Assembly: GCA_964576755.1 (NCBI GenBank)
Contig: CAZNUV010000001.1
Location: 40,883-104,882, forward strand
Direction of reading: 5' to 3'
DNA length: 64,000 bases
Source of the DNA: Candidatus Woesearchaeota archaeon
Lineage (GTDB): Archaea > Nanobdellota > Nanobdellia > Pacearchaeales > GW2011-AR1
Position 1 is the first letter of the stretch. The number at the start of each line of letters is the position of its first letter. The position numbers were made by a program, and so were the translations under genes. The notes under the pieces were generated by a model. It made no database searches and had not been told where the DNA came from. It saw nothing but the letters and a program-made list of their open reading frames with translations. Of the stretch, positions 37,560-64,000 are shown one piece after another.

Positions 37560-37694
37560 ATGGTGACATTAATTTGTAAGTTTTGCGGATATTGTCTAAA
37601 AAAAGATTCTCAAATTAAGACTTGTCCTTATTGTGGTAAAAAAAATGCCTTAGTAGAAGAAGAAACTGCCGAGGAAATTGTAATAGAAGTTTAA
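37560..37694 (+). CDS. 44-aa zinc-ribbon peptide (uncertain)
   Basis: Hand translation: MVTLICKFCGYCLKKDSQIKTCPYCGKKNALVEEETAEEIVIEV. CxxC...CxxC. Directly upstream of aglB. Not in the ORF track. Confidence 0.35.
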   Translation: MVTLICKFCGYCLKKDSQIKTCPYCGKKNALVEEETAEEIVIEV

Positions 37695-37713
37695 TATTAA
37701 GATAGATGAAAAA

Positions 37714-40449
37714 ATGGAAGAAGAAATAAATAAAAGAAAAGAGAAAGTTTTAGATTTTTTAAAACAACCAACAGTTTGGGTTTTAGGATTTTTGATAATT
37801 GCTTTAATTTTAGGAGTTTATATTAGAAGCATCCCCATGCATATTAGGCCAGAAACTGGAAAACCAGGTCTGTGGGATATAACTACAGATACATGGACTC
37901 TTGGTCCAGATCTTGATCCATGGCTATTTTTAAGATCTGCTAAAGAAATTGTTGATACAGGCTCTATTGCTCAAATAGATGTCATGAGGAATGTTCCATT
38001 AGGGTTTGATACAACAAAGGAAACTCGACTACTTCCATATATGATTACTACAACTTATTGGATACTAAATATTTTTTCAAATGTTAATATTGAATATGCC
38101 GGAGTTATATTCCCAGTGATTATGTTTACTTTTACAATCTTAGTTTTTTTCTTATTTGTTAGAGAGATATTTATAACGAAAAATAAAAATTCAAAAATCA
38201 AGGCTAATATCATTTCCCTTATCTCAACATTTTTTATGATTGTTATACCTAGTCTTTTATCAAGAACTTTAGCAGGAATTCCAGAAAAAGAATCTGCTGG
38301 TTTCTGTTTTCTTTTTTTAGCGTTTTATTTATTTTTAAAGGCATGGAAATCTGAAAATTGGAAATTTGCTTCTTTTTTTGCAATAATTGCGGGAATTTCT
38401 ACTGCTACAATGGGGCTGATTTGGGGAGGTGTAAATTATATTTTTGTTACAATTGCAGTTTCTACATTTTTAGCATTTTTATTAAACAAGATAGATAAAA
38501 AAGAAACTTTAATTTATTCCCTCTGGCTTGTTTTTTCTTGGGCGGTAATGTTAATATTTTCTAATAGGTTTGATTTAAAGGGATTTATAGTTTCTCTTGA
38601 TACTGGACTTGCATTTCTTATTTTATTTATTCTTATTGTCCACTTAATACTGTGGAAAACAAAAATATCTAAACTGAAAATTTTAAGGAATTGTAAACTT
38701 CCAAAAAATATTACTTCTTTAATTATTTCAATAATTTTAGGGGTTTTACTCGTATCAGTATTATTTGGTCCAAATTTTATAATAGAAAAAATAACCGATT
38801 TAAACCAAATTTTATTTAAGCCAACTACAGGAAGATGGAACACTACTGTTGCAGAAAATAGACAACCTTATTTCTTAGAATGGGGTGCGAGTTTTGGGCC
38901 TTTTATCCCTAATGTTAAAAACAGTGCTATTTTGTTTTGGCTGTTCTTTGTGGGTTCGGTAGTATTATTTAAACAAATGTTAAAAAAGATAAAGAATAAA
39001 GATGCTTGGATTTTGACTGGACTTTATATTTTCTTTTTTTGCGGACTAGTCTTTTCAAGATATTCAGAACATCCAGCTTTGTTTGATGGTGAGAATTTTA
39101 TTAGTAAAGCTTTTTATTATTTTTCTGCATTATTATTAATAGGATTCTTAATATATTATTATTTTCAATACCATAAAAGGCAAGATAATAGTTTTGATTT
39201 AATACGGTTTGAATATCTACTCTTATTTTCCCTATTTATTTTAACATTATTCACAGCAAGAAGTGCGGTAAGACTGATCATGGTTTTAGCCCCAATAGCC
39301 CCTATCTTTGTAGGTTTTTTAATTTTTTATCTTGTAGATAAATTTATAAAATCTGAAGATGAGACAAAAAGAATTATATATAGTTCTCTAGCGATTGTAG
39401 TCATTTTGTTAAGTTTGTTCACATTTTGGACATACTATAATAGTGTTAAAGCACAAGCAAGCGGCATGATTCCTTCTTCATATAACCAACAATGGCAAAA
39501 AGCAATGCAATGGGTTAGAGAAAATACTAATGAACAGACAACAGTATTTGCACATTGGTGGGATTATGGATATTGGGTTCAATCTATAGGAAAAAGAGCA
39601 ACTGTTTTAGATGGTGGAAATGCAATAAAATTTTGGAATTATCTTATGGGGAGATATGTATTAACCGGAGACAACCAAGATGATGCTTTAGAATTTTTAT
39701 ATAATCACAATGCGACCCATTTATTAATAGATTCTACAGATATTGGAAAATATGGGGCATTTTCAAGTATTGGAAGTGATGAAGATTATGATAGATTTAG
39801 TTGGATTCCTGCAATGATTTATGATGAATCTCAAACAAAAGAAACTAATAGAGGTATTACAATTGTTTATCAAGGAGGATTTGGTATTGATGAAGATATA
39901 GTCTATGAACAGAATGGAACCAAGATATTTCTTCCTGCAGAAAAAACTGCAATAATCGGGATGGTTATTGAGACTATTCAGAATAATAATTCAATTGCAT
40001 TTGAACAGCCCCAATTAGCATTTTACTATCAAGGAAAACAGATAAATATTCCATTGAGATATATTTATTTTAAAGACCAATTTTACGATTTTAAAACAGG
40101 ATTAGAAGGAACAGCAGATATCATTCCAAAAGTAGATTCTAATGGTAAATTAAATATTGCTGGGGCCCTGATATATATCTCTCCAAGAGTTATGAGAGGT
40201 ATGCTTGCCCAAAAATACCTATTAGATGATCCATTTAATAATTTTCCAAATTTTAAACTAACCCATACTGAATCTAGTTTAGTAGTAGAGTCTCTAAATT
40301 CTCAAGGAACAAATCTTGGAGAATTTATTTATTATGGGGGAGTTCAAGGACCTATTAAAATCTGGGATATAGAATACACTGGAAAAGAAAAAATAGTGGA
40401 AGAATACTTAGATAAAGATTATTCAAAATATCTATCTTGGGAATTATAA
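37714..40449 (+). CDS. aglB: dolichyl-phosphooligosaccharide-protein glycotransferase AglB (archaeal STT3 oligosaccharyltransferase)
   Basis: 911 aa, 13 N-terminal TM helices. Hallmark WWDYGYW motif (AHWWDYGYWVQS). Large C-terminal soluble domain. Confidence 0.9.
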   Translation: MEEEINKRKEKVLDFLKQPTVWVLGFLIIALILGVYIRSIPMHIRPETGKPGLWDITTDTWTLGPDLDPWLFLRSAKEIVDTGSIAQIDVMRNVPLGFDTTKETRLLPYMITTTYWILNIFSNVNIEYAGVIFPVIMFTFTILVFFLFVREIFITKNKNSKIKANIISLISTFFMIVIPSLLSRTLAGIPEKESAGFCFLFLAFYLFLKAWKSENWKFASFFAIIAGISTATMGLIWGGVNYIFVTIAVSTFLAFLLNKIDKKETLIYSLWLVFSWAVMLIFSNRFDLKGFIVSLDTGLAFLILFILIVHLILWKTKISKLKILRNCKLPKNITSLIISIILGVLLVSVLFGPNFIIEKITDLNQILFKPTTGRWNTTVAENRQPYFLEWGASFGPFIPNVKNSAILFWLFFVGSVVLFKQMLKKIKNKDAWILTGLYIFFFCGLVFSRYSEHPALFDGENFISKAFYYFSALLLIGFLIYYYFQYHKRQDNSFDLIRFEYLLLFSLFILTLFTARSAVRLIMVLAPIAPIFVGFLIFYLVDKFIKSEDETKRIIYSSLAIVVILLSLFTFWTYYNSVKAQASGMIPSSYNQQWQKAMQWVRENTNEQTTVFAHWWDYGYWVQSIGKRATVLDGGNAIKFWNYLMGRYVLTGDNQDDALEFLYNHNATHLLIDSTDIGKYGAFSSIGSDEDYDRFSWIPAMIYDESQTKETNRGITIVYQGGFGIDEDIVYEQNGTKIFLPAEKTAIIGMVIETIQNNNSIAFEQPQLAFYYQGKQINIPLRYIYFKDQFYDFKTGLEGTADIIPKVDSNGKLNIAGALIYISPRVMRGMLAQKYLLDDPFNNFPNFKLTHTESSLVVESLNSQGTNLGEFIYYGGVQGPIKIWDIEYTGKEKIVEEYLDKDYSKYLSWEL

Positions 40450-40495
40450 TTTAATCTTAGACAAATTTTAAAAGCCTTAAATGTGTATTTAATTC

Positions 40496-41512
40496 ATGGA
40501 AATTATCTTATTTGTTTCAATAATAATAAGTTTCATTTTAACTATTGTTGTACTCCCAAAATGGATTAGAAAGTGTAAACAAACTGGACTTTTATGGGAA
40601 GATATGAACAAATATACTCATCCTAAGAATGTTGCAGGTTCTGGAGGAATTGTGGTTGTAATGGCGTTTATATTAGGGGTTTTAAGTTATATTGCGATAC
40701 GTACGTTTTTGATTATAAATCAAAATGGAATAACTACACAAATATTTTCTCTACTAACAGTGGTCTTAATTTTGTCAATCGTAGGTCTTACTGATGATTT
40801 ACTTGGTTGGAAACATGGAGGATTATCAGCTAAGATAAGAATTTTTTTAGCTCTTATTGCATCAATCCCCTTGGTAGTAATAAATGCTGGTTCTCAGACA
40901 ATAATGCTTCCATGGATTGGGACTATTAATTTAGGACTATTTTATACATTGATTATTCTTCCTTTAGGAGTTGCAGGAGCTACAACTGCGTTTAATTTTT
41001 TAGCAGGGTTTAATGGATTAGAAACAGGACAAGGAATAATCATTTTAACATTCCTTTCTTTTATTTCATATATCACTGGGACCACATGGTTAGCATTAAT
41101 TGGTCTAATTATGGTTTCTTCTTTAATTGCATTTTATTTTTATAATAGATTTCCGGCCAGGGTCTTTCCGGGGGATATACTTACTTATTCGGTTGGGGCA
41201 TTAATTGTAACCATGGCAATTTTAGGGAATTTTGAAAAGATTACAATATTTATTTTTATCCCATACATTATTGAGGGAATTTTAAAGGCTCGTGGAGGTT
41301 TAAAAAAACAATCTTTTGCAATACCAGATAAATATGGAAATCTAAAATTACCATATAAAAAAGTCTATAGTTTAACCCATTTATCAATTTTAATCCTAAG
41401 CAAGTTTAAAAGAAATGTAAGAGAAAGAGATGTGACTTATCTAATCTTTATCTTTCAAGTATTAATATGCCTAATAGCCCTTGTACTTTTTAAGAAAGTT
41501 CTATATATCTAA
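40496..41512 (+). CDS. UDP-GlcNAc:dolichyl-phosphate GlcNAc-1-phosphate transferase-like (MraY/WecA/GPT family, AglH-like)
   Basis: Polytopic protein. GLTDDLLGW, AFNFLAGFNGLETGQ (NxxNxxDGxDGL-like) and PGD motifs of the polyprenyl-phosphate hexose-1-P transferase family. Confidence 0.75.
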   Translation: MEIILFVSIIISFILTIVVLPKWIRKCKQTGLLWEDMNKYTHPKNVAGSGGIVVVMAFILGVLSYIAIRTFLIINQNGITTQIFSLLTVVLILSIVGLTDDLLGWKHGGLSAKIRIFLALIASIPLVVINAGSQTIMLPWIGTINLGLFYTLIILPLGVAGATTAFNFLAGFNGLETGQGIIILTFLSFISYITGTTWLALIGLIMVSSLIAFYFYNRFPARVFPGDILTYSVGALIVTMAILGNFEKITIFIFIPYIIEGILKARGGLKKQSFAIPDKYGNLKLPYKKVYSLTHLSILILSKFKRNVRERDVTYLIFIFQVLICLIALVLFKKVLYI

Positions 41513-41513: not shown

Positions 41514-42443
41514 ATGACAGAAAAAATTTCAATTATTATACCCTGCAAAAAGATAGATTCTCAAACCAAAAAATGTATCTTAGAATGTTTAAAATTAGAT
41601 TATTCTAATTTTGAAATAATCGTTCTACCAGATAATTCTGATAAGGTAAAATACCCTAAAATAGTCAAAATAATTTCTACAGGCCTTGTTAAGCCTTCAA
41701 TAAAGAGGAATATTGCAATGGATAAATCTAATAGTGAATTTTTTGCATTTATAGATTCGGATGCATATCCAAAAAAAGATTGGTTAAAAAATGCTATTAA
41801 ATATTTTAAAAATGATAAAATTGGAATTGTTGGTGGACCAAATTTAACCCCTTCTGAAGGAAATTTTTGGGAAAAAATTTCAGGATATACACTTTCTAAT
41901 TTTTTTGTGAGTGGAAAGGCCTCTATACGTTATAAGATTTCTAATAATCAATTCGTTACAGAACTCCCTTCTTGTAATTATATCACAAGAAATAAGGCTG
42001 CTGAAAAGTATGATTCTAATTTTTTAACTGCAGAAGATACAAAATTTTGCTTTTCAGCTAGGAAAAAAGGATATAAAATATTATATGCAAACGATGTTAT
42101 AGTCTTTCATCATAGAAGAGATAGTTTAAAAAAACATCTAAAACAAATGTTTGTTTATGGAAGAGATAATCTTTGGCTTTTAAAAAAAGAGTTTTCTATA
42201 AATAAACTCCATTTTCTAATAACTCTTATAGGGATTATTGGTTTTTTATTGGGAATTATTTTTTCCTTTTTTAATCCGGTTATAAGAATTATTTTCCCGA
42301 TATTAATAACAATTTCTTTGTTTATGATTCTTTTCACTAGCATACACAAAAGTATAAAGATAACTTTTTTTGTTTTTATCACTTCAGTACTAACTCTTTT
42401 TGCCCATGGGCTAGGATCTTTATATGGTTTAATTTCAAAATAG
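41514..42443 (+). CDS. family 2 glycosyltransferase with C-terminal TM helices (Dol-P-sugar synthase-like)
   Basis: ISIIIPCKK...FAFIDSDAYP (DxD). GT-A fold pattern. Two C-terminal TM helices. ATG at 41514 is preferred over the overlapping track start. Confidence 0.8.
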   Translation: MTEKISIIIPCKKIDSQTKKCILECLKLDYSNFEIIVLPDNSDKVKYPKIVKIISTGLVKPSIKRNIAMDKSNSEFFAFIDSDAYPKKDWLKNAIKYFKNDKIGIVGGPNLTPSEGNFWEKISGYTLSNFFVSGKASIRYKISNNQFVTELPSCNYITRNKAAEKYDSNFLTAEDTKFCFSARKKGYKILYANDVIVFHHRRDSLKKHLKQMFVYGRDNLWLLKKEFSINKLHFLITLIGIIGFLLGIIFSFFNPVIRIIFPILITISLFMILFTSIHKSIKITFFVFITSVLTLFAHGLGSLYGLISK

Positions 42444-42485: not shown

Positions 42486-43946
42486 TTGAATATGAAAATA
42501 ATTATTGGATACCCTCCTACAGAATCTGAAAAGGGGGTTGCACTTTTAAGTCAAAATAGACAATTTCAATGGTTTAGCAATCCTAGTTATTTATTCCCAA
42601 TTGTTTTAGGCAGTGCTGCAACTATGTTAAAATCAAGAGGCAATAAGATACTCTGGCTAGATTGTATTGCTGAAAAAATTCAAATGGAAAAATTTTTTAG
42701 TATTCTAAAAAAGGAAAGCCCGGACTTATTTGTCTTTGAAACAAAAACACCAGTAATTAAACAACATTGGAATCTTATTAATCAACTTAAAAAAAACTTT
42801 CCAAAGATGAAGATAGTTCTTTTAGGAGACCATGTAACTTCATTCCCTAAAGAAAGTATGGAAAAATCAAAAGTAGACTTTGTTTTAACTGGAGGAGATT
42901 ATGATTTCTTACTAAGTGATCTTGTAGATTTTTTAAATAATAAAATAAAAAAAATTCCTAAAGGTATTTGGTATAGAAAAAATAATAAAATAATGAATTC
43001 TGGAAAATTTACACTAAATCAAAAATTAGACAATGCACCATTTATAGACCGTCAATTAACTAAATGGGAAAATTATCAAAAAGAATACAACATTAGCAGA
43101 AAGCCTTATTTTTATATTATGTCTGGAAGAGATTGTTGGTGGGGAAAATGCAAATTTTGTGCTTGGCCAAGATTATTCCCGTGTTTTAGAGTGAGAAGTG
43201 TTGAAAACGTCTTAAATGAAATTGGGCATTTAATAAAACAATATAATGCCAAGGAAATATTTGATGATTCTGGAACTCTAACTGTAGGAAAATGGTTAGT
43301 AGATTTATGTAATGGGTTAATCAAAAGAGGTTATAATAAAAAAATAAGATATTCTTGTAACATGCGTTTTGCAGCATTAAAACAAGAGGATTATTATCTA
43401 ATGAAAAAAGCTGGGTTTAGATTGTTAAAGTTTGGATTAGAAAGTGCTAATCAATCTACCTTAGATAGATTAAATAAAGGTGTTAAAATAAAAGATATTC
43501 TTGAAGGTTGTAAAATGGCTAAAAAGGCAGGATTAACTGTCCATTTAACAATGATAGTAGGATATCCTTGGGAAACAAAACAAGATGCATTAAAAACATT
43601 TGAATTAGCCAAAAAATTAATGCAATCAGGACTTGCAGATGTATTACAATCAACAGTTTTGATTCCTTATCCTGGAACTCCTCTTTGGGAAGAAGCAAAA
43701 AAGAATGACTGGTTTTTATTTAACCCTGAAGATTATGAGAAATATGATATGCGGAGCCCTGTATTAAAGACTAAAAACTCTAATGCAAATGATGTTGCTT
43801 CTGTCTGTGGGCAGATTTATACTATCTTTTTGACACCCAAATATATCTTTGCAAGAATTAAATCTATCCGTTCTTGGGACGACATTATGTTAAACTTAAG
43901 AGGAATTAAAGCAGTATTTGGACATTTAAAGGACTTTTGGAAATAA
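42486..43946 (+). CDS. cobalamin-binding domain radical SAM protein (class B-like), paralog 1
   Basis: N-terminal Rossmann/B12-binding-like region. Cluster CWWGKCKFC (CX4CX2C variant). Radical SAM core (FGLESANQ). Confidence 0.7.
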   Translation: MNMKIIIGYPPTESEKGVALLSQNRQFQWFSNPSYLFPIVLGSAATMLKSRGNKILWLDCIAEKIQMEKFFSILKKESPDLFVFETKTPVIKQHWNLINQLKKNFPKMKIVLLGDHVTSFPKESMEKSKVDFVLTGGDYDFLLSDLVDFLNNKIKKIPKGIWYRKNNKIMNSGKFTLNQKLDNAPFIDRQLTKWENYQKEYNISRKPYFYIMSGRDCWWGKCKFCAWPRLFPCFRVRSVENVLNEIGHLIKQYNAKEIFDDSGTLTVGKWLVDLCNGLIKRGYNKKIRYSCNMRFAALKQEDYYLMKKAGFRLLKFGLESANQSTLDRLNKGVKIKDILEGCKMAKKAGLTVHLTMIVGYPWETKQDALKTFELAKKLMQSGLADVLQSTVLIPYPGTPLWEEAKKNDWFLFNPEDYEKYDMRSPVLKTKNSNANDVASVCGQIYTIFLTPKYIFARIKSIRSWDDIMLNLRGIKAVFGHLKDFWK

Positions 43947-44711
43947 AAATTTTGATACAGTAGAAAATTCGTATTTTTGTTTTTTACAAAAAAGAATATA
44001 AGACTCTAATAAATTTAATAGCTCTTTTCCATTCTTTCTTTTTATTATAAGCGGTAACTTAAATGGTTTTAAATCTGAAAATTCCCAGGGATGAAATATA
44101 ATCATAGTATAATTAGAAAAAAGATTATTCAATTTTGTGAAAACCTTAGGGTATAATGGTCCGAGATTTTTAAATGCAAACCAAGCAATTGGTAATCTCA
44201 ATAGAGGTAAAACAGATGGAGGGATTTCTACAATATTTCCAAGATAATGAACACTTCTTTTTTTAAACAAGTTTATGTATTTTCCTGGAAGAAATGTTGG
44301 GTGAATTGAAGAGTCATATTCAAAACCTAAATTTTCTAATCTTTGAATATCTTTTATCTGAAATCTTGGAGCCCTAAACCCCCTGATTTTTAATTTTAAC
44401 TTTTCTAACTGAGCCTTAGATTGACTGATTCTTTTAAAATTATTTTTATCTAAATAATTATCTTTATGCTCTAATCCGTGACAAGCAATTTCATGCCCTT
44501 TTTTTTGTAGGGATTTAATAAATCCGGGATATTTTTTGGCAAAAACCGCAGTTGTGAAAAATGTTGCTTTAACCTTATGTTTATCTAAAAGTTTATCTAA
44601 CTCGATTAATCCTCTCATAGATTGTTCAAATTTTTCATTTACCTTAGAAACAGGTAATTCATCAAATTCTTCTGTATCAAAAGTTAGGAGAATTTTCATT
44701 TTACATTTCAT
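43926..44711 (-). CDS. polysaccharide deacetylase (NodB homology domain)
   Basis: MKILLTFDTEEFD (TFDD motif region)...CHGLEH... is the carbohydrate esterase 4 pattern. Confidence 0.7.
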   Translation of the reverse strand: MKCKMKILLTFDTEEFDELPVSKVNEKFEQSMRGLIELDKLLDKHKVKATFFTTAVFAKKYPGFIKSLQKKGHEIACHGLEHKDNYLDKNNFKRISQSKAQLEKLKLKIRGFRAPRFQIKDIQRLENLGFEYDSSIHPTFLPGKYINLFKKRSVHYLGNIVEIPPSVLPLLRLPIAWFAFKNLGPLYPKVFTKLNNLFSNYTMIIFHPWEFSDLKPFKLPLIIKRKNGKELLNLLESYILFCKKQKYEFSTVSKFLFPKVL

Positions 44712-55377: not shown

Positions 55378-55791
55378 ATGAAAGCATATATTGCCGGACC
55401 GCTATGTACTGAAAAAGATAGGAAATTTGTTGAAAAGATGTCTAGATTATGTGAATCTCTTAGGATTAAAACTTTTCTTCCACATAGAGACTGTGGATTA
55501 TGGAAAAACATTAAAGATACAAAAAGGATTGCAGAAGGAGATCTTAATGGGTTTAAAGACTGTAACCTGGTTGTTGCTAGTTTGAACGGATTTGGAGTGG
55601 GTACAGGAACTGCATGGGAAATGGGATATGCTTATTCTAAAAAACTTCCAATTATTGCTATAAAAACTGATAGAAAAATAGAAAAATCAATAGAGGAAAT
55701 AAGTGCAATTATCATGGGTACAACAAAGATTGTTTCAAATTTTAAAGATTTAGAAAGAGAAATTAAAAAGATAATAAAAAATAAGAACTAA
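55378..55791 (+). CDS. nucleoside 2-deoxyribosyltransferase / DNPH1-like family protein
   Basis: YIAGPL near N-terminus. GVGTGTAWEMGYAY (D/GTAFExG nucleophile motif). The track start at 55357 is TTG; ATG at 55378 preferred. Confidence 0.65.
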   Translation: MKAYIAGPLCTEKDRKFVEKMSRLCESLRIKTFLPHRDCGLWKNIKDTKRIAEGDLNGFKDCNLVVASLNGFGVGTGTAWEMGYAYSKKLPIIAIKTDRKIEKSIEEISAIIMGTTKIVSNFKDLEREIKKIIKNKN

Positions 55792-57664: not shown

Positions 57665-59209
57665 CTAAACATGATATCTTATCTTATCATACCAAACTTT
57701 AAATGAAACTGGTAAACTTCTATAGATTGGTTTAATAATTTTTTCTCTAACTAAATCAAAAATAGATAAAAGTCTTGTCGCAAAAATTGCAAGAGTTGGA
57801 TTTTTCAGGTTTCTTTTAACTCTCTCTGGTTTTAGAAGAAAATTAATCATCCAGTTAGGCATTAAACCAAATCTTTTATTTGTTACAGGTCCTCTCATTA
57901 GGTTTAAAATTAAAACTAAATAAATATTTTTTCTTTTCAGTAATATGTGTTTTCCTCTATCCCAATAATTCAGTTGAGCAGCAGTATCTTTTTCAGATTT
58001 TATTAATCCATCTTTTAAAGCACGGTCATAAAGCTTAGTTCCGGGGAAAAATACAAGATTATTTACAGACAGATAATAAGGTTTAGAAATCTTTTGAAGA
58101 AGTCTTATCATAGCAATTATATCTTGAGGTTTTTCATAAGGATTACAAGTTATAACATCATACATTACTGCTAATCTGTCTTTATAATTGCTAAGGATTT
58201 TACTTGCATTTAAAACATTCATATCTGTTTGATTCCTATGATATATTTCATGATTTGTTCTTTCTGCTCCTTGAATTCCAACGATTAAATCAGTACATCC
58301 TGCATTTACTAAAAGATCTATTTTTTCTTGAGAAATTGTTTTTGGGTCTCCCAAACATTTAAACCTAAGTTTTACTTTTTCTTTATATAACTCACAGAAT
58401 TCTTTTATTTGACTTAATGGTCTTAAAGAAAATGTGTCATCCCTAATATCAAAATAGCTTAAACTAGGAAATTTCTTTTTCATTTCTAAAATTCCTTTAA
58501 TAATATATTCTGGAGAATGCCATCTTAAAATTTGTTTACATTTACCTTTATAGAGCTCATTAAAAAAACTATTACTACAATAATCACAACCATAAGGACA
58601 ACCACGACCAGTTAAAAAGAATATTCCTCCTGCAAGATCCTTTTCTTGGAATTTTCTTAAATTTCCATTATCCAAGATATAATTTGTTTTAGTATCATAA
58701 TCTGGCAAAGGTAATAAATCTAGATTATCAATTGTTGGTCTAACTGGATTTTTTATAACCTCTCCGGATTTTTTATCTCTTATCCAAAGATTTTTTATCT
58801 TGTTTATTGGTTTATTTTTTTCTAAGGCATTAACTAGTTCTAAAATAGTTTCTTCTCCCTCTCCAACACAAACTAAATCTGTCTGTTTTATACAATCTTC
58901 AGGAGAAATTGTTGCGTGAACTCCTCCATAGACAATTGGAATTTCTGGAATTTTTGATTTAAGAAAAGCTATAATCCTATTTGCCCTTTTTGAAGTAGAA
59001 GCATAAGAACTTATTCCGATTACATCACTTTTATAACATATTTTTAAAAGTTTAGATAACTCTGAGATAGTATAATTTCTAGAATAATCTTCTGAAAGAG
59101 TCATAAAGACTAATTTAACATTATGGCCTGGTTTTTTTAAAACTGCAGAAATTGTTCTTATTCCTTGGTCTGAAGGAAAACATGCAGTAGAAATTAAGGT
59201 AATTTTCAT
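57665..59209 (-). CDS. cobalamin-binding domain radical SAM protein (class B-like), paralog 4
   Basis: TGRGCPYGCDYCSN (CX3CX2C). N-terminal B12-binding-like domain. Confidence 0.8.
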   Translation of the reverse strand: MKITLISTACFPSDQGIRTISAVLKKPGHNVKLVFMTLSEDYSRNYTISELSKLLKICYKSDVIGISSYASTSKRANRIIAFLKSKIPEIPIVYGGVHATISPEDCIKQTDLVCVGEGEETILELVNALEKNKPINKIKNLWIRDKKSGEVIKNPVRPTIDNLDLLPLPDYDTKTNYILDNGNLRKFQEKDLAGGIFFLTGRGCPYGCDYCSNSFFNELYKGKCKQILRWHSPEYIIKGILEMKKKFPSLSYFDIRDDTFSLRPLSQIKEFCELYKEKVKLRFKCLGDPKTISQEKIDLLVNAGCTDLIVGIQGAERTNHEIYHRNQTDMNVLNASKILSNYKDRLAVMYDVITCNPYEKPQDIIAMIRLLQKISKPYYLSVNNLVFFPGTKLYDRALKDGLIKSEKDTAAQLNYWDRGKHILLKRKNIYLVLILNLMRGPVTNKRFGLMPNWMINFLLKPERVKRNLKNPTLAIFATRLLSIFDLVREKIIKPIYRSLPVSFKVWYDKIRYHV

Positions 59210-60360
59210 TTTTTTGTAGATTTTATTAATTTTTTATATTCTTCTAAATATCGTTTAGAAATATTATTCCATTTGAATTTTTTAGCTCTTTCAAGATTGG
59301 ACTTAGATATTTTTTTAGCGAGTTTAGGATTATCAATAATTTTTATTATGTTCTCTTCCATTTTTTTTATATCTCCATATTCAGAAAAAAGCCCGTTTTC
59401 AGGTTCTTTTATTTCATAAGGGATACCATTAACTGGGCATGCAACTATTGGAAGCCCAGATGCCATTGCTTCAAATAATGTTAAAGGTAAACCTTCTCTA
59501 TAACTTGGAAGGGCATAAATATCAGCAGATTGATACATTTCAGCTATTTTATCTTTACCTTTCATATAGCCTAGGTATTGCATATTTTTATATGGCTTAA
59601 TTAATTTTTTGACTTCTTCTGCTTTTCCTTCATCTGGACCAACCCAGATAAATGCAATATCTTTTCTTTTCTTTGTAATATTTATAGCTACTTGAGCTAA
59701 TTTTTCTGGTCCTTTTGTAGGGTTTAACCTTCCAAAGAATAAAACTAGATATTTTTCTTTTATGTTATATTTTTTTCTGAAATTGTTGTTTTTTATTTTT
59801 TCAAACAATATTTCATCAACCCCATTAGGAATAACCTGGATTTTTTTATTATTAACAAATTTTTTTAAAATAGGTAATTCCCAGGGAGTTATGGCAATTA
59901 CTCTATCAATAAGTCTAAATGCAAATTTGTTCAGAAAAATATCATTTAAAAATAAAAACAAATGTAAACTTTTTGGTCTGAATTCTTTTCCTGTCCAAGG
60001 ACAATGAGTAGTATGAATATATTCGATATTCTTAAATTTGGCTAAAAGTCCTGCAAAGAGAATATAATCATGTCCAGAAACATGGCTATGAATTACATCA
60101 AAATCCCCTTTAAATCTCCATAAGAGAGATGGCCAGAAAAATGTATTAAAAGAAAATCTAAACCAGTAGGGCAGCCTATGAACATGAACGCCTTCAATAG
60201 TTTCTTCTTTAAGTTTAATACGGGAATTTTTATCAGAATCACAGCAAAAAACATGTACCTCATGACCTTGTTTAACTTGCCTTGTTGCCAATTCATAGAT
60301 CATTTGTTCAACCCCACCGATTGTTGGAAGATAAAACATGCTAATATGGGCTATTTTCAT
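59206..60360 (-). CDS. family 4 glycosyltransferase (GT-B, retaining)
   Basis: EGLPLTLFEAMASGLPIV (E-x7-E motif). Confidence 0.85.
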   Translation of the reverse strand: MKIAHISMFYLPTIGGVEQMIYELATRQVKQGHEVHVFCCDSDKNSRIKLKEETIEGVHVHRLPYWFRFSFNTFFWPSLLWRFKGDFDVIHSHVSGHDYILFAGLLAKFKNIEYIHTTHCPWTGKEFRPKSLHLFLFLNDIFLNKFAFRLIDRVIAITPWELPILKKFVNNKKIQVIPNGVDEILFEKIKNNNFRKKYNIKEKYLVLFFGRLNPTKGPEKLAQVAINITKKRKDIAFIWVGPDEGKAEEVKKLIKPYKNMQYLGYMKGKDKIAEMYQSADIYALPSYREGLPLTLFEAMASGLPIVACPVNGIPYEIKEPENGLFSEYGDIKKMEENIIKIIDNPKLAKKISKSNLERAKKFKWNNISKRYLEEYKKLIKSTKK

Positions 60361-60434
60361 AATTTTTAACTAAAAAGAGAGCATATAAATATTGTGGTAA
60401 CAAAATTTATATAGCTAGATTTTTTTCAACAAAG

Positions 60435-61475
60435 ATGAATATTAAGAATTTTTTACAGGAAATAAGGTATTATATTAAATTAGAAGGAGTAAAAAGACCA
60501 TTTTTAAAATTTTTATGGTATCAATCTATTTTTTCAAAATTAGTTAATACTCCTCCTTACAATAAAATCTATGCAAAAAGAATAAAAAAACAAGCAAAAA
60601 GAATAAAACCCGGGATTCTACAGATTGAAACAACAAATGCATGTAATGCTAGATGTTTAATGTGTCCACACAGATTTATGAAACGACCAGTGAAGACTAT
60701 GAGTTTAAATGATTTTCAAAAGGTTTTAGATAATGTTATGAAAAACTATCCAAGTATTAAGAGAGTTACACTAAGTGGATTTGGAGAACCTTTACTAGAC
60801 CCTGGTTTATTCAAAAAAATTGATTATATAAACAAAAAATATCCTAAACTAAAAATAGACCTGTTCACAAATGCAGGATTATTAAATAAAGAACGTGCAG
60901 ATAAATTACTACAAAAAAAACTCGGGAGAGTTACTTTTTCTATAAATGGGGCTGAAAAAGAAGATTATGAAAAAATTATGGGATTAGATTATAATATTGT
61001 AACTAAGAATGTTTCTTATTTTTTGAAACAAAAAAAATTATTAAAAAAAGAATTTTTAGTTAACATTTCTATGATGGTTTTAAAAGAAAATGAGAAAAAA
61101 GCTCAAACATTCATTGAAATGTGGAAACCTCTTACAGACTCTGTTAGGGTTTATTATCCTCAGGATTGGGTAGGGGAATTAAAAGAAAATCTTGGAGAAC
61201 AAAAAATACCTTATGAAAGAAAACAATGGCCTTGTTCTGCTCCTTGGACACATATTGTGATTCATTCTAATGGAGAATTTTTAGCTTGTTGTAGAGATTT
61301 TAATTCTCAATGGGCATTTGGAAACCTGATTAAAGGAGATGATATAAAAAAATTAAGAGAGGGAAAGAAATTCCAAGAATTTTTAAAACAACAGTTGAAA
61401 TCTGATTTTTCTTTTCCTTTATGTAAAAATTGTGATCATGCTTATGATTCTAGTGTAGAGTGGTGGCTTTGGTAA
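60435..61475 (+). CDS. radical SAM protein with C-terminal SPASM/twitch-like Cys-rich domain
   Basis: ETTNACNARCLMCPH (CX3CX2C). C-terminal CSAPW...CCRD...CKNC auxiliary-cluster motifs. Confidence 0.8.
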   Translation: MNIKNFLQEIRYYIKLEGVKRPFLKFLWYQSIFSKLVNTPPYNKIYAKRIKKQAKRIKPGILQIETTNACNARCLMCPHRFMKRPVKTMSLNDFQKVLDNVMKNYPSIKRVTLSGFGEPLLDPGLFKKIDYINKKYPKLKIDLFTNAGLLNKERADKLLQKKLGRVTFSINGAEKEDYEKIMGLDYNIVTKNVSYFLKQKKLLKKEFLVNISMMVLKENEKKAQTFIEMWKPLTDSVRVYYPQDWVGELKENLGEQKIPYERKQWPCSAPWTHIVIHSNGEFLACCRDFNSQWAFGNLIKGDDIKKLREGKKFQEFLKQQLKSDFSFPLCKNCDHAYDSSVEWWLW

Positions 61476-62343
61476 GACCATCTTTTGTTCCTTTAATAAA
61501 TGGAGTGATAAGAGAAAAATTCCCTTTTAATAAAAAGTTAGATAACATGAATGGAATATAAAATCCAAAAAGAAAGGTAAAAAAGATAGTTTTTTGGAAA
61601 AAAGAAGAGTTTCTTTTAATAAATAGAACTTTACTTCTCATATAATGGTACATCTTAAAGGGGTTTATTGCCTTTTTATTACAATCATGCCAGGCTTTTG
61701 CTTTAGGTGCATAAATAATCTTATATCCTTTTTTCCGAATCCTATAACACCAATCGGCATCTTCATAAAATAAAAAAAAGTCTTCACTAACTGGACCTAC
61801 TTCTAAAACTATCTTTTTGGTAGTTAATAAAACAGAACCAGGAACTGCATCTACAGAGACTGATTTTTCAAATTGCCCATTATCTATTTTATCAATTCTA
61901 TTTCTGTCTGCCTTACCTGTTTTTAAACTAATTGAAAATCCAATATTATCAATTCTTCTTTTATCACTGTAATAGTATAATTTTGGAAAAACAATTCCAG
62001 AGTGAGAATTAGAAGTAAAAACATTAACTAATTCTTTTAATATATTTTTTTCTAAGATAACATCACTATCTAATCTTAGGACAAATGGCCCTTTTGCACT
62101 TTCAAATCCCTGATTTATAGCCTTAACACACCCTAGATTTTCTTGATTTTCTATAATCTTAACTTTTTTAAATTTCTTTTTTATATCTTCCTTACTTCCA
62201 TCAGTACTGTAATTATCAATAACAATCACATCATAAGAAGGATAATTTAATTTAGATATTGAATCAAGACATCTAATAACTTTTTCACCATCATTCCAAT
62301 TAGGTAAGATTATTGTAACATGTGGAAGTTCCTTGTTTCCCAT
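61450..62343 (-). CDS. family 2 glycosyltransferase
   Basis: VTIILPNWNDGE...VIVIDNYSTDGS...RLDSDVIL. Confidence 0.85.
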   Translation of the reverse strand: MGNKELPHVTIILPNWNDGEKVIRCLDSISKLNYPSYDVIVIDNYSTDGSKEDIKKKFKKVKIIENQENLGCVKAINQGFESAKGPFVLRLDSDVILEKNILKELVNVFTSNSHSGIVFPKLYYYSDKRRIDNIGFSISLKTGKADRNRIDKIDNGQFEKSVSVDAVPGSVLLTTKKIVLEVGPVSEDFFLFYEDADWCYRIRKKGYKIIYAPKAKAWHDCNKKAINPFKMYHYMRSKVLFIKRNSSFFQKTIFFTFLFGFYIPFMLSNFLLKGNFSLITPFIKGTKDGLTKATTLH

Positions 62344-62452
62344 GTCTTTAGGAACCCCTTAAAGCTTATAAAGATTTCTAGGGAGGATTAATTAATGTAA
62401 TTATAAAGTTACAACCCAAAAGGTTTAAATACCGGATATTATATCGAAAGAT

Positions 62453-63148
62453 ATGAGAAAAGATATTGCAATCGCCACAATAACTTCAGATAAATGTGGA
62501 AATATAGATGTAATCAAACAAGGTTTGGAAACATTAAACAAGAAATTTGATGTTTATGTGGCTGATAGAAATTCTTCTGAAGAATTTTTAGAAGATATAA
62601 GGAATATGGGATGTAAAAGAATTATTGGACCAAATAAAACCCTTCCTGATCAACATAAACAAGTCCTACTTTGTGCTTCAGAAAATAAACCTTATGTTCT
62701 TTATACAGAACCTGATAAAGTTGATTGGTTCAATAATGGTTTAGAAAAATCTATTGAAGAGTTTTTTTTAAGAGAGTTGGATCATGGAGAGGTTTCAAGA
62801 ACTCCTGAACAAATGAAAACATTTCCAGTACCTCAACAGATGACAGAAGGGGTGGTTAACAATTTATTAGGACAAATTACTGGAATTCAAGGAGATTATA
62901 TCTATGGTCCTCAGATTTCTAGTTCAGAAATATTAAAAACCTTAAAAAGTTTACCAAAGGATATTAGTTATCTTGGTTGGGGAACACTTACATATATTCC
63001 TATAAAAGCAAAAGAAAAAGGACTTAGAATTGGGATGATTTATAATGCTAATGAATGCCCTATTAGTCAAAGAAATGAAGATAATGCAGATTATAGAGTA
63101 CAACAGGCTAATGGAAACATAGCAGGGATTTTACTGGGCCTAAAATAA
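62453..63148 (+). CDS. hypothetical protein
   Basis: 231-aa ORF with no recognised motif. Lies between a GT2 and glf. Confidence 0.45.
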   Translation: MRKDIAIATITSDKCGNIDVIKQGLETLNKKFDVYVADRNSSEEFLEDIRNMGCKRIIGPNKTLPDQHKQVLLCASENKPYVLYTEPDKVDWFNNGLEKSIEEFFLRELDHGEVSRTPEQMKTFPVPQQMTEGVVNNLLGQITGIQGDYIYGPQISSSEILKTLKSLPKDISYLGWGTLTYIPIKAKEKGLRIGMIYNANECPISQRNEDNADYRVQQANGNIAGILLGLK

Positions 63149-63205
63149 GACCTCTTTCTAATTAATCCCAATAATGTTTATAAAACAAGTCAAATAGATA
63201 AATTT

Positions 63206-64000
63206 ATGGATAAAAAGAAATATGATTATCTAATTGTTGGTGCTGGATGGAGTGGTGCAGTTTTAGCAGAAAGGCTCTCCTCTATTGGAAAAAAAATATT
63301 AGTGATAGACAAGAGAGACCATATTGGAGGAAATTGTTTTGATGTTTTAAACGAAAAGGGGATTTTAATCCATAGATATGGCCCCCATTATTTTAGAACA
63401 AGTTCTTTTAGAATTATGGAATATTTATCTAACTTTACTTCTTGGATTTTACATAGATATAAAGTAAAAGCAAATATTAATGGAAAACTTTATACTCTTC
63501 CGATTAATAGAAACACATTGAATCAATTTTTTGGGATAAATCTAAAAACAGATGAAGAAACAAAAAAATTCCTAGAGTCTAAAAAAGAAAAAATAAAAAT
63601 TCCAAAGAATGCTGAAGAACAAGTTTTAGCTTTAGTTGGAAAAGAAATATATGAATCTTTTTTTAAAAATTATACAATAAAACAGTGGGGAATTCATCCA
63701 AAAAAACTAGACCCTTCAATAACCGCTAGAATTCCTATTAGAACAAATACTAATGATGATTATATCAATGAAATTTTCCAGGGAATGCCTAAAAAGGGAT
63801 ATAATGAAATTTTTAAAAAATTATTAAAAAATGTGGATTTAAAACTAAACACTGATTTTGAAGATATAAAAGACAAGATTGATTATAAAAATATAATTTA
63901 CACGGGTAGGATTGATGAGTTTTTTGGATTTAAATTTGGTAAGTTACCTTATAGAAGTATTAATTTTAAATTTGAGACATATCCTAAGGAATTTTATCAA
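63206..64000 (+). CDS. glf: UDP-galactopyranose mutase, partial (runs off window end)
   Basis: FAD motif YDYLIVGAGWSGAVLA. VIDKRDHIGGNCFD...GILIHRYGPHYFRT. Confidence 0.9.
   Translation, partial: MDKKKYDYLIVGAGWSGAVLAERLSSIGKKILVIDKRDHIGGNCFDVLNEKGILIHRYGPHYFRTSSFRIMEYLSNFTSWILHRYKVKANINGKLYTLPINRNTLNQFFGINLKTDEETKKFLESKKEKIKIPKNAEEQVLALVGKEIYESFFKNYTIKQWGIHPKKLDPSITARIPIRTNTNDDYINEIFQGMPKKGYNEIFKKLLKNVDLKLNTDFEDIKDKIDYKNIIYTGRIDEFFGFKFGKLPYRSINFKFETYPKEFYQ

Follow-up and report, generated by a model that had tools for sequence, protein, structure and literature searches.

Gene content of the locus

In a tiny symbiotic-type archaeon of the Pacearchaeota (DPANN), a conserved block of genes adjacent to that of the oligosaccharyltransferase AglB interleaves B12-type radical SAM (rSAM) genes with glycosyltransferase (GT) genes, the two presumably being co-transcribed (Table 1). 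Gene content in the window, the whole 64,000-nucleotide stretch analysed here, was established with Pfam and NCBIfam profiles, the gathering score of the B12-binding family PF02310 being 32.1. The profiles bear out the inventory of an initial annotation, which had listed AglB, an initiating GPT, GT4, GT9 and GT-C enzymes, a flippase-like protein, a NodB deacetylase, an epimerase, Glf and a SPASM radical SAM. They give four GT2 enzymes where five had been counted. The 231-aa protein at 62453-63148 matches no family in Pfam, NCBIfam or PADLOC, and AglB stands at the edge of the island instead of at its centre. Four further genes had been missed: the ANT-like nucleotidyltransferase, the adjoining phosphodiesterase, and QueC and a nucleoside-deoxyribosyltransferase-like gene, the last two interspersed in the island, so that some island genes are not glycan-related.

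Table 1. Features of the glycosylation island and its continuation on the same contig
Feature	Position	Strand	Profile evidence
SpoIIM-like 7-TM membrane protein	36668..37534	+	PF01944 59.8 bits
AglB/STT3 oligosaccharyltransferase, 911 aa	37714..40449	+	PF02516 45.8 bits
Polyprenyl-phosphate HexNAc-1-phosphate transferase (GPT/AglH-like)	40496..41512	+	PF00953 102 bits
GT2a, GT2	41514..42443	+	PF00535, PF13641, PF13632
rSAM1, HpnJ-like class-B-type radical SAM, 484 aa	42492..43946	+	PF04055 73.9 bits; PF02310 27.5 bits
NodB-type (Polysacc_deac_1) deacetylase	43926..44711	-	PF01522 48.9 bits
GT2b, small soluble GT2, 229 aa, polyprenyl-phosphate-sugar-synthase-like	44708..45397	-	PF00535 84 bits
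LPG_synthase_TM flippase-like membrane protein	45482..46438	+	PF03706 139.5 bits; TIGR00374 94 bits
ANT-like nucleotidyltransferase (MNT + HEPN-like helical domain)	46419..47690	+	no Pfam family
Alkaline-phosphatase-superfamily (AlkP) phosphodiesterase / nucleotide pyrophosphatase-like	47687..48784	+	PF01663 62 bits
rSAM2, B12-domain radical SAM, 492 aa, CX3CX2C	48781..50259	+	PF02310 78 bits; PF04055 85 bits
SDR sugar epimerase/dehydratase/reductase	50256..51266	+	PF01370 145 bits
rSAM3, B12-domain radical SAM, 467 aa, CX3CX2C	51285..52688	+	PF02310 88.8 bits; PF04055 90 bits
PMT_2-type GT-C glycosyltransferase	52709..54319	-	PF13231 37.9 bits
GT9 (heptosyltransferase-family) glycosyltransferase	54312..55316	-	PF01075 77 bits
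GT2c glycosyltransferase	55788..56690	-	PF00535 41.5 bits
rSAM4, B12-domain radical SAM, 514 aa	57665..59209	-	PF02310 56 bits; PF04055 48 bits
GT4 glycosyltransferase	59206..60360	-	PF00534 116 bits; PF13439 102 bits
Radical SAM/SPASM protein, 346 aa	60435..61475	+	PF04055 59 bits; PF13186 43.7 bits
GT2d glycosyltransferase	61450..62343	-	NCBIfam GT2 families, top PgaC 86.6 bits, all below cut-off
231-aa island protein	62453..63148	+	
UDP-galactopyranose mutase Glf, cut by window end	63206..64000	+	PF03275 132 bits
5th B12-rSAM	just beyond window end		
GT2-radical SAM/SPASM fusion	just beyond window end		
Second deacetylase	just beyond window end		
Wzx-like flippase	just beyond window end		

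AglB carries the motifs WWDYG (aa 615) and DLD (aa 66) along with 14 TM-like segments, and has orthologs of 33-60% identity in 18 related loci. A SpoIIM-like homolog lies 5' of AglB in 15 related loci as a conserved neighbour, and the GPT, with 8 TM-like segments, comes after AglB in 26 loci. Three C-terminal TM-like segments (aa 238, 257 and 290) form a predicted membrane anchor in GT2a. The deacetylase gene overlaps that of GT2b by 4 nt and neighbours it in 10 loci; GT2b itself, which has a counterpart in 56 of 90 loci, matches PpgS (polyprenyl-P-GalNAc synthase, 47 bits) best and AglJ and the Dol-P-hexose transferase family as well, all below cut-off. The flippase-like gene occurs in 28 loci, and the AlkP-type phosphodiesterase, which overlaps both its neighbours by 4 nt and finds no match among PDB sequences, in 20. 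PMT_2, a family using polyprenyl-phosphate sugar donors, is present in 14 loci and has 9 TM-like segments here; the GT9 gene overlaps it by 8 nt and has orthologs of 59-62% identity in two loci (L011 and L012). An identical GT2d gene in L001/L106 carries precomputed PF00535 and PF13641 assignments, and Glf is complete, at 365 aa, in L106.

Radical SAM enzymes and their relatives

Four genes for class-B-type radical SAM proteins were found where the initial annotation had placed them (42486-43946, 48781-50259, 51285-52688 and 57665-59209). The AglB/GPT glycosylation locus into which they are set in this DPANN genome is genuine and conserved. To call them four paralogs overstates their relationship: rSAM1-4 share only 24-32% pairwise identity and are thus old superfamily relatives, not recent paralogs. 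A paralog with 40% identity to rSAM4 lies just outside the window, as does the GT2-rSAM fusion, whose rSAM half shares 28% identity with the SPASM protein.

Searches against curated NCBIfam families brought none of the four to any cut-off, and their reaction is therefore not transferable by homology. The top match is HpnJ for rSAM1 (185 bits) and rSAM3 (220 bits), against a cut-off of 577.6 in both cases, and BchE for rSAM2 (208 bits against 481); ApyD and HpnJ lead for rSAM4 at about 91 bits. In a direct comparison rSAM3 shares 29% identity with an annotated HpnJ. Among PDB sequences, rSAM2 matches AprD4 best (E 1.3e-21) with OxsB second, TokK is the only match of rSAM4, and BtrN is the top match of the SPASM protein (E 5e-11). 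An AF2 model of rSAM1 (pLDDT 88) has AprD4 as its closest fold (TM 0.73-0.79). The closest solved structures, namely AprD4 (paromamine), OxsB, BtrN and the ANT enzymes, act on sugars or cyclitols.

The B12-binding domain ascribed to all four proteins passes the Pfam threshold in rSAM2, rSAM3 and rSAM4 and stays below it in rSAM1. In the latter, the cysteine motif is a conserved CX4CX2C with C217, C222 and C225 invariant. The sub-threshold domain, this motif and AprD4 as closest structural neighbour make the cobalamin dependence of rSAM1 doubtful. At the position of TokK Trp76 and OxsB Asn186 the alignment to the rSAMs is ambiguous, and cobalamin binding is not readable from sequence. No cobalamin genes occur among the Pfam-scanned ORFs of the window, which comprise all but some short ones and the bulk of those in the ribosomal operon (22.7-32.2 kb), and no cobalamin riboswitch was found in the 64 kb. 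The idea that the cofactor is scavenged agrees with published DPANN genomics (PMC8421398).

Operon geometry and synteny

AglB, GPT, GT2a and rSAM1 run head-to-tail on the same strand, and every rSAM is co-oriented with a nearby glycan gene, at a distance of 48 nt for rSAM1 and 18 nt for rSAM3 and with 4-nt overlaps for rSAM2 and rSAM4, the latter with the upstream GT4. The flippase-like gene heads a tightly overlapping six-gene operon that continues with the nucleotidyltransferase and the phosphodiesterase and ends with rSAM2 and rSAM3 flanking the SDR gene. Similar arrangements recur in dozens of related loci, and other Pacearchaeota keep the order SpoIIM-AglB-GPT-GT2a-rSAM1-deacetylase-GT2b-flippase-NTase-AlkP-rSAM-PMT_2-GT9. 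The clustering of rSAM and glycan genes exceeds chance.

No other protein of the locus is as well conserved as rSAM1, which shows 50-77% identity across about 90 loci; identity reaches 55% or more in 41 loci for rSAM1 and in 5 for AglB. Within a set of 80 metagenomic loci, 59 could be tested for the gene directly 5' of rSAM1, which is GT2a-like in 41 (median gap -7 nt) and a GT2 in 45. Of the 28 metagenomic loci with 7 kb or more of upstream sequence, 11 contain AglB, and of the 35 longer than 12 kb, 16 contain a second B12-rSAM; further neighbours include Wzx-like flippases, GT4 and GT-C-like proteins, a UDP-sugar dehydrogenase/epimerase and methyltransferases. Most loci in the rSAM1 group at 50-55% identity are without AglB, which ties the core cassette to glycan synthesis generally and not specifically to N-glycosylation. 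The conserved core enzyme of the locus is rSAM1; rSAM2-4 fall within a variable portion of it. Orthologs of rSAM2 (71%) occur in L032 and L037, where AlkP and SDR are kept, those of rSAM3 (59-79%) in about 19 clusters, one of which (L006) has it adjoining rSAM1 and the deacetylase, and a 69% ortholog of rSAM4 in L040. Another genome of 27% GC (L021) combines four B12-rSAMs with PMT_2 and a 227-aa GT2.

Conceivably, the rSAM genes could be unrelated passengers, such as peptide or cofactor maturases, or the island an assembly chimera. Distant homologs do turn up outside glycan loci, RiPP-type clusters included: relatives of rSAM3 at no more than 40% identity are found in Hecatellales, in Archaeoglobaceae and in a Clostridium RiPP-type cluster with a PqqD chaperone, an S8 peptidase and an ABC transporter. 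QueC and the deoxyribosyltransferase-like gene, scattered among the island genes, would also fit. However, the synteny data contradict this reading, which we regard as very improbable. Start/stop codon overlaps tie the rSAMs to GT, SDR and AlkP genes, their adjacency is kept across about 90 loci, the contig also carries a GT2-rSAM fusion, and the island is free of precursor-peptide, PqqD and protease genes. A chimeric assembly is refuted, since four samples independently yielded the identical island and the gene order is kept across Pacearchaeota; GC content is flat (27-30% across the island, 26-32% across the whole window), and the island runs at least 10 kb past the window end.

Proposed function and possible chemistry

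We consider it likely that this is a conserved AglB-anchored surface-glycan locus whose class-B-type radical SAMs are sugar-tailoring enzymes. The block suggests that the surface sugars of this archaeon undergo an uncharacterised type of radical modification. On the cytoplasmic face, the GPT and GT2 enzymes would make dolichol-(pyro)phosphate-linked sugars. Each rSAM would reductively cleave SAM and take a hydrogen off a sugar carbon in an intermediate that is either lipid-linked or nucleotide-tagged. Methylcobalamin might then donate a methyl group to the radical; alternatively, the radical might lead to an HpnJ/OxsB-like ring contraction, or to dehydration with subsequent reduction by the SDR, an AprD4/AprD3-like deoxygenation. 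After flipping, AglB would transfer the products to protein Asn and the PMT_2 GT-C would transfer from Dol-P-sugar donors. The chemistry had struck the initial annotation as unfamiliar in archaeal N-glycan pathways, and no open-access paper was found that connects radical SAM enzymes with N-glycosylation in archaea or with glycan loci of DPANN.

That annotation had also proposed a heavily tailored glycan, possibly C-methylated or otherwise radical-modified. Tailoring is well supported; C-methylation is one option only, as the chemistry may be C-methylation, ring contraction or deoxygenation. Strictly cobalamin-dependent C-methyltransferases adding branches to N-glycan sugars, as GenK/GenD1 do for gentamicin or MoeK5 for the lipid-linked moenomycin saccharide, are a possible but less probable solution. 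Three of the four rSAMs have B12-binding domains above threshold, the PhpK and Sden_1168 methyltransferase models score 112-161 bits with rSAM2 and rSAM3, and the nucleotidyltransferase and phosphodiesterase beside rSAM2 are reminiscent of the route of Fom3, a methylase that uses transient cytidylylation in fosfomycin synthesis. But the top profiles (HpnJ, BchE) are non-methylases, and the top structures include, besides QCMT, AprD4, which is a dehydratase, and OxsB, which catalyses ring contraction. Moreover, rSAM1 falls short of the B12 threshold, and ordinary SAM methyltransferases are also frequent in related loci, so rSAMs are not required as a source of methylation. Characterised class B enzymes are mostly methylases (PMC12931638; PMC9204698), and published networks group HpnJ with the methylases Fom3 and MoeK5 (PMC9204698), whereby sequence cannot decide the chemistry. 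Our best guess for rSAM1 is an enzyme that does not methylate and may be independent of cobalamin; rSAM2-4 would be genuine cobalamin enzymes that diversify an outer, variable portion of the glycan.

The target could also be a lipid-linked sugar or glycolipid instead of a protein N-glycan. Taken further, the module would be a lipid head-group system in which a sugar is placed on a membrane or polyprenyl lipid, deacetylated and rearranged by radical chemistry, giving a carbocycle as the hopanoid HpnI-K-J route and archaeal calditol synthesis do, before the MprF-like flippase moves it across the membrane; host-scavenged lipids would then be remodelled. HpnJ is the top profile for rSAM1 and rSAM3, HpnA, named a 'hopanoid-associated sugar epimerase', is that for the SDR (163 bits against a cut-off of 368), HpnL weakly matches the flippase-like protein, and a ladderane lipid rSAM model gives rSAM3 150 bits. 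Ring contraction by HpnJ and Cds has been reviewed (PMC13459092). GT2, deacetylase, rSAM and LPG_synthase_TM genes co-occur, and the GT2b-rSAM-deacetylase operon of L013, adjoining a flippase-like gene, follows the logic of hpnI-J-K-L and parallels hpnI-J-K with the LPG-synthase-domain gene of Mycetohabitans. In P0326, the flippase-like domain is fused to the ANT-like nucleotidyltransferase family, an MprF-like architecture. The HpnJ, HpnA and HpnL matches, the L013 operon and the P0326 fusion also count in favour of the sugar-tailoring reading. Nevertheless, we judge this reading unlikely. Every score falls well short of its family cut-off, and no lipid-family cut-off is reached. HpnI, HpnK and HpnL find no BLAST match in the island, so the hopanoid parallel is one of analogy and not of orthology, and the deacetylases differ in annotated family (HpnK against NodB/Polysacc_deac_1). 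The window contains no lipid-synthesis genes, and Pacearchaeota are without the tetraether synthase Tes (PMC8941075). Finally, rSAM1 directly adjoins GT2a and has the same orientation as AglB and GPT.

Composition and layout of the AglB-linked glycan locus

From 37.7 kb onwards, Pfam and NCBIfam searches delineate an island encoding AglB, GPT, four GT2 glycosyltransferases, a GT4, a GT9, a PMT_2 GT-C, an LPG_synthase_TM flippase-like protein, a NodB deacetylase, an SDR, Glf (cut by the window end), a radical SAM/SPASM protein and four proteins with B12-binding and radical SAM domains, here named rSAM1 to rSAM4. These four lie exactly where the initial annotation had drawn them, and its observation is confirmed with corrections. 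GT4, GT9 and GT-C are present as described, but the GT2 enzymes number four and not five; a 231-aa ORF between GT2d and Glf, which has no Pfam, NCBIfam or PADLOC family, may be what had been counted as the fifth. Genes absent from the earlier list are a 423-aa family-less protein (the ANT-like NTase), an AlkP-type phosphodiesterase, QueC (preQ0 synthesis) and a nucleoside 2-deoxyribosyltransferase-like gene. The last two are probably housekeeping insertions, since there is no defence-system match beyond QueC itself; on the same PADLOC result a defence-system reading of QueC, NTase and their neighbours was rejected.

Features of the window and their profile matches (cut-offs in brackets)
Feature	Position	PF02310 (bits)	Cys motif	Best NCBIfam profile (bits)
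tRNA, 127 nt	16425-16551
AMP-phosphorylase-like protein	17163-18635
IF-2B-family protein	35135-36565
SpoIIM-like 7-TM protein	36668-37534
AglB	37714-40449
GPT	40496-41512
GT2a	41514-42443
rSAM1 (484 aa)	42492-43946	27.5 (32.1)	CX4CX2C	HpnJ 185 (577.6)
Deacetylase	43926-44711
GT2b	44708-45397
Flippase-like protein	45482-46438
NTase	46419-47690
AlkP-type phosphodiesterase	47687-48784
rSAM2	48781-50259	78	CX3CX2C	BchE 208 (481)
SDR	50256-51266
rSAM3	51285-52688	89	CX3CX2C	HpnJ 220 (577.6)
Nucleoside 2-deoxyribosyltransferase-like gene	55378-55791
GT2c	55788-56690
QueC	56952-57659
rSAM4	57665-59209	56	CX3CX2C	ApyD and HpnJ, about 91
Patch shared with rSAM5 (L106:12262-12348), minus strand, inside rSAM4	58739-58825
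SPASM protein	60435-61475
GT2d	61450-62343
231-aa ORF	62453-63148
Continuation of the island (L106:10754-20696, same contig, mostly beyond the window end)	63206 to about 73148

AglB belongs to the STT3 family (PF02516, 45.8 bits against a cut-off of 24.5) and carries WWDYG at aa 615, a DLD motif at aa 66 and 14 TM-like segments; it misses the subfamily model TIGR04154 (72 versus 450 bits). The SPASM protein matches PF04055 (58.9 bits) and, C-terminally, PF13186 (43.7 bits, cut-off 21.5), while no curated NCBIfam equivalog is attained (best 97 versus 380 bits). Its closest solved relative is BtrN, which dehydrogenates an aminocyclitol by radical SAM chemistry, and several locus proteins therefore have nearest solved relatives acting on aminosugars or cyclitols. 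The NTase family comprises 112 members without a Pfam domain, one of them fused to an LPG_synthase_TM domain; the few members with a source name come from Pacearchaeota, Nanoarchaeota or an 'archaeon'.

The layout is that of tightly packed predicted transcription units. AglB, GPT, GT2a and rSAM1 follow one another on one strand at short spacing, the genes for GT2b and the deacetylase share 4 nt, and the chain of flippase-like protein, NTase, AlkP, rSAM2, SDR and rSAM3 has spacings of -20, -4, -4, -4 and then +18 nt. Further downstream the GT9 and PMT_2 genes overlap, as do GT4 and rSAM4 (by 4 nt). The island runs on past the window, where Glf is followed by rSAM5 (a fifth B12-binding rSAM of 522 aa, 40% identical to rSAM4), a GT4, a 748-aa double SDR with a PseB/FnlA-like part, a second NodB deacetylase, a Wzx-type flippase and a 663-aa protein in which a GT2 domain is fused to a radical SAM/SPASM-like one. 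Five B12-type rSAMs, a SPASM rSAM and the GT2-rSAM fusion are thus found within about 36 kb. Judged from its domain composition, the fusion argues directly that one substrate would undergo both radical SAM chemistry and glycosyl transfer in this organism. An 87-nt patch, identical at 86 of 87 positions, is shared by rSAM4 and rSAM5 and looks like a trace of gene conversion between these paralogs, which are encoded on opposite strands some 5 kb from each other.

The initial annotation had allowed for the island being a chimeric assembly. This DNA was recovered independently from two ENA samples, one JGI sample and one Logan run, and a 145-kb ENA contig is 100% identical to the window over the compared stretch; identity across four independent assemblies together with flat composition (26-32% GC across the whole window) rules this out.

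Sequence and fold of the radical SAM proteins

All four proteins contain the radical SAM core (PF04055, 48-90 bits), whose three [4Fe-4S] cysteines are spaced as CX3CX2C in rSAM2, rSAM3 and rSAM4 and as a CX4CX2C variant in rSAM1. The B12-binding domain, judged by the PF02310 gathering score of 32.1, is present in rSAM2, rSAM3 and rSAM4 and borderline in rSAM1, so that the two-domain assignment expected from the first reading stands for three proteins and falls under the PF02310 cut-off for the fourth. The variant cysteines of rSAM1 (C217, C222 and C225) are invariant in 25 relatives. Its AlphaFold (AF2) model has a pLDDT of 88 and class B architecture, with an N-terminal domain of alternating strands and helices (Rossmann-like), and matches class B structures. 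The best structural match is AprD4 (TM 0.73-0.79), followed by QCMT, TsrM and OxsB; the similarity to AprD4 is real but generic to the fold. The one loop modelled with low confidence contains the most invariant motif of rSAM1, LSQNRQFQ (aa 20-28). By sequence, the best solved relatives of the four proteins are AprD4 (a sugar 1,2-diol dehydratase), the methylases QCMT and TokK, and OxsB (sugar-ring contraction). Telling methylase from non-methylase by the residue beneath the corrin was set aside: in an ambiguous alignment, TokK W76 pairs with Glu82 of rSAM2 and OxsB N186 with Leu80.

The proteins had been described as four paralogs. They do belong to one superfamily, of which they are old members with a pairwise identity of 24-32%; this divergence rules out a recent expansion, the only closer pair being rSAM4 and the out-of-window rSAM5.

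None of the four attains the cut-off of any curated NCBIfam family. HpnJ (TIGR03471) was rejected for all, rSAM2 and rSAM4 scoring 141 and 91 bits. The highest score for BchE (TIGR02026) is that of rSAM2, and no bacteriochlorophyll genes are present. The AprD4 family (NF033070, cut-off 500) gives 44.5, 92.5, 89.9 and 24.5 bits for rSAM1 to rSAM4, and PhpK and every other family score far under their cut-offs. Assignment to a non-glycan family such as lipid synthases, considered at the outset, was not borne out by any cut-off either: the ladderane-type archaeal lipid model TIGR04072 reaches 89-150 bits against 360, and the Ta0216-type TIGR04190 48-81 bits on rSAM2-4 against 500, with rSAM1 unmatched among the 25 families listed. 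A tetraether synthase or other enzyme of lipid core modification was likewise discarded, Pacearchaeota being reported to lack Tes (PMC8941075). Transfer of function from distant homologs (at most 40% identity) was also abandoned, their neighbourhoods being heterogeneous: a LarB/LarC-like setting, a Clostridium RiPP-type cluster with PqqD chaperone, S8 peptidase and ABC transporter, and glycan loci in Lawsonia and in the contig L021.

Conservation across related loci

Named homologs of the island proteins come from Candidatus Pacearchaeota or Nanoarchaeota, which bears out the earlier guess of a DPANN origin. Other Pacearchaeota genomes and metagenomic contigs present a recurrent order: SpoIIM, AglB, GPT, in some cases a flippase-like gene, GT2a, rSAM1 and deacetylase/GT2b, then flippase-like protein, NTase, AlkP, one to three further B12-rSAMs, PMT_2 and GT9. 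The SpoIIM-like protein directly upstream of AglB is conserved in 15 related loci.

A profile scan of metagenomes retrieved 507 rSAM1 relatives, and the best 80 loci were analyzed. In this set a GT2 gene lies directly upstream of rSAM1 on the same strand in 45 of the 59 loci with enough upstream sequence; it is GT2a-like in 41 of these 59, with a median gap to rSAM1 of -7 nt, and in 18 loci the second gene upstream is GT2b-like. AglB occurs in 11 of the 28 loci having at least 7 kb upstream, and a second B12-rSAM in 16 of the 35 longer than 12 kb. Wzx-like flippases and GT4 also recur in the neighbourhood, together with large GT-C-like membrane proteins (DUF2079, DUF6541), UDP-sugar dehydrogenase/epimerase, AlkP-type enzymes and SAM methyltransferases. 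The rSAMs are integral, predicted co-transcribed parts of a conserved glycan-assembly locus, to which AglB and GPT belong in Pacearchaeota.

No other protein of the locus is nearly as conserved as rSAM1, which has at least 55% identity in 41 loci versus 5 for AglB and 6 for GT2a. In Pacearchaeota loci it is 71-77% identical where AglB is only 44-60%, and it also exceeds GPT and the surrounding glycosyltransferases. Orthologs of rSAM2, rSAM3 and rSAM4 were found in one or two of these loci only, always within the same locus; they belong to a variable region comparable to O-antigen-type diversity.

Related combinations occur elsewhere. A GT2b-GT2a-rSAM1 cassette (46-57% identity) is present in bins labelled as the CPR bacteria Candidatus Saccharibacteria (L017, L018) and in an unclassified bacterium (L019), through either inter-domain transfer between small-genome symbionts or mis-binning. 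Of the rSAM1 loci with 50-55% identity, two fall in Saccharibacteria-labelled bins. In another low-GC genome (GCA_019058315.1, L021:1235-11285 on a 1.4-Mb contig, 27% GC), four B12-binding rSAMs cluster with a PMT_2 GT-C, a SAM methyltransferase and a 227-aa GT2, so that a small GT2, a GT-C and several rSAMs again occur together. Plasmid 1 of Lawsonia intracellularis (L105, NC_008012.1; 27 kb) is largely taken up by a glycan locus; it encodes two radical SAM proteins along with five SAM methyltransferases, GT2s, DUF2142, GalE and heptose-pathway-like proteins. It is an uncharacterised bacterial counterpart of the rSAM-containing glycan loci; since such bacterial loci exist, the general idea is not unique to archaea.

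Candidate chemistries, cofactor use and flanking genes

The setting suggests that the substrates would be lipid-linked or nucleotide-tagged intermediates at the cytoplasmic side, where the rSAMs would abstract hydrogen from sugar carbons before flipping and transfer by AglB or the PMT_2 GT-C. Three chemistries with precedents among related enzymes could follow. The C-methylation considered possible in the initial annotation is one of them; its interpretation is partly supported, in that the rSAMs lie in a conserved AglB/GPT locus.

C-methylation would have GenK and MoeK5 as precedents. By description, GenK/GenD1 and MoeK5 are cobalamin-dependent sugar C-methyltransferases, class B rSAMs that functionalise unactivated sugar carbons; unlike the island, they belong to actinomycete antibiotic pathways. 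MoeK5, which works on a lipid-linked saccharide (PMC9204698), is the nearest precedent for a glycan substrate carried on a lipid.

Ring contraction to a carbocycle, as with HpnJ and OxsB, is the second option, and the set of GT2, deacetylase, rSAM and LPG-synthase-type protein mirrors hpnI-K-J-L, which turns bacteriohopanetetrol glucosamine into a cyclitol ether head group. Among NCBIfam profiles, HpnJ scores best on rSAM1 and on rSAM3, over nearly their full length. Each of the two has 29% identity to an annotated HpnJ encoded on a Mycetohabitans megaplasmid (21-29% over the rSAMs), and rSAM1 shares with this HpnJ, by eye, a 'C.FC.WP' motif and an N-terminal insertion. An HpnA-like SDR completes the likeness, and the related locus L013 has a GT2-rSAM-deacetylase operon. 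However, both scores are far from the HpnJ cut-off, the cysteine motif of rSAM1 differs from the CX3CX2C of HpnJ, the organism is an archaeon, its locus is tied to AglB and GPT, and no hopanoid genes are present (the window contains no squalene-hopene cyclase). The deacetylase is NodB-type (Polysacc_deac_1), a different family from HpnK, and orthology of the GT2/deacetylase/flippase module to hpnI/K/L was rejected, as Mycetohabitans HpnI, HpnK and HpnL have no BLAST match to island proteins. Since HpnJ groups with the methylases Fom3 and MoeK5 in published networks (PMC9204698), HpnJ-like scores do not decide among the chemistries. OxsB, a cobalamin-dependent rSAM, catalyses non-methylating deoxyribose ring contraction, and as a PDB sequence match it spans both the B12 and rSAM domains of rSAM2 (E 7.6e-18) and rSAM3 (E 7.6e-16). 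OxsB (744 aa) has N-terminal and helix-bundle domains in addition, uses a nucleotide substrate and works with the HD-domain partner OxsA; none of these is seen here.

Dehydration plus reduction to a deoxy sugar, the third option, would fit the rSAM2-SDR-rSAM3 layout. Paromamine, an aminoglycoside precursor, is deoxygenated at C3' by AprD4 and its reductase partner AprD3; the substrate is a sugar, and an rSAM beside an NAD(P)-dependent reductase-type gene is common to both settings. AprD4 is also the best PDB sequence match for rSAM2 and rSAM3. On the other hand, identity in the structural alignment is only 14-15%, the NCBIfam scores are low, AprD4 acts on a soluble natural-product intermediate, and rSAM2-4 have strong B12-domain matches.

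The Fom3 substrate is presented via transient cytidylylation, which the NTase and phosphodiesterase by rSAM2 may recall; we take this as a lead only. Polyprenyl-phosphate aminosugar pathways make polyprenyl-P-HexNAc, deacylate it, flip it and transfer it outside. The small GT2 (best match PpgS), NodB-type deacetylase, flippase-like protein and PMT_2 GT-C resemble these ArnC/ArnD/ArnT and PpgS/Rv3779-type pathways, which lack an rSAM and whose models all score below cut-off on the island. Archaeal agl clusters of Haloferax, Methanococcus and Sulfolobus similarly group AglB (with WWDYG), GPT, Dol-P-type GT2, flippase candidates and SDRs; in the island these are joined by the concentration of radical SAM genes described above.

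We tentatively propose that Pacearchaeota and related small-genome archaea may make a surface-glycan sugar new to archaeal glycoconjugates (carbocyclic, C-branched or radically deoxygenated) on lipid-linked intermediates by the HpnJ-like rSAM1 (CX4CX2C), which is highly conserved throughout the lineage, and a GT2a-type GT2, diversified by cobalamin rSAMs and the GT2-rSAM fusion. Glycoside tailoring by class-B-type rSAMs is already known; what is new is the archaeal AglB-linked surface-glycan locus and the highly conserved rSAM1 subfamily. Characterised sugar or glycoside class B rSAMs serve antibiotics, nucleosides and hopanoid head groups, and reviews of the class name none that works on cell-surface or archaeal N-linked glycans (PMC12931638; PMC9204698). 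Full-text searches for AglB with radical SAM in archaeal N-glycan synthesis, for DPANN radical SAM with glycosylation/cobalamin or glycosyltransferases, and for B12-binding radical SAM with glycosyltransferase in archaea found nothing relevant, and two DPANN comparative-genomics papers (one of them PMC8421398) mention neither radical SAM nor glycosyltransferases. The chemistry had been noted as unfamiliar from archaeal N-glycan pathways, in agreement with this lack of precedent. That a genome-reduced archaeon spends at least seven radical SAM genes on a single glycan locus, and that rSAM1 is so conserved across hundreds of environmental relatives, suggests an unusual, functionally important sugar on the DPANN cell surface, the interface with hosts. 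For enzymology, rSAM1 offers a well-defined new subfamily with an obvious partner glycosyltransferase. The cofactor dependence (B12, Fe-S) of DPANN symbionts becomes concretely testable; if the proposal is true, the surface of cofactor-auxotrophic symbionts would rely on iron-sulfur chemistry and scavenged B12.

We know of no sequence motif that diagnoses cobalamin binding, and its use by rSAM1 is doubtful. Class B enzymes bind cobalamin base-off, and AprD4 is classed as unrelated to B12-dependent rSAMs although it lies in their sequence network (PMC12931638). Cobalamin genes were absent among the ORFs scanned with Pfam (all but most of the ribosomal operon and a few short ORFs), as was a cobalamin riboswitch from the 64-kb window, and both absences are uninformative. 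The scavenging suggested by the initial annotation is reasonable, since Woesearchaeota are reported to have complete cobalamin pathways only rarely (PMC8421398).

The remainder of the window holds core archaeal genes (FtsZ, the r-protein operon, SecY, Tyw1, AMP phosphorylase, IF-2B-like). A 127-nt tRNA is found by Rfam but goes unreported by ARAGORN; it is probably an archaeal tRNA with an intron. The AMP-phosphorylase-like and IF-2B-family proteins suggest the archaeal AMP salvage pathway; the latter, a candidate ribose-1,5-bisphosphate isomerase, has 476 aa, about 220 aa more than a 268-aa homolog in the related locus L006.
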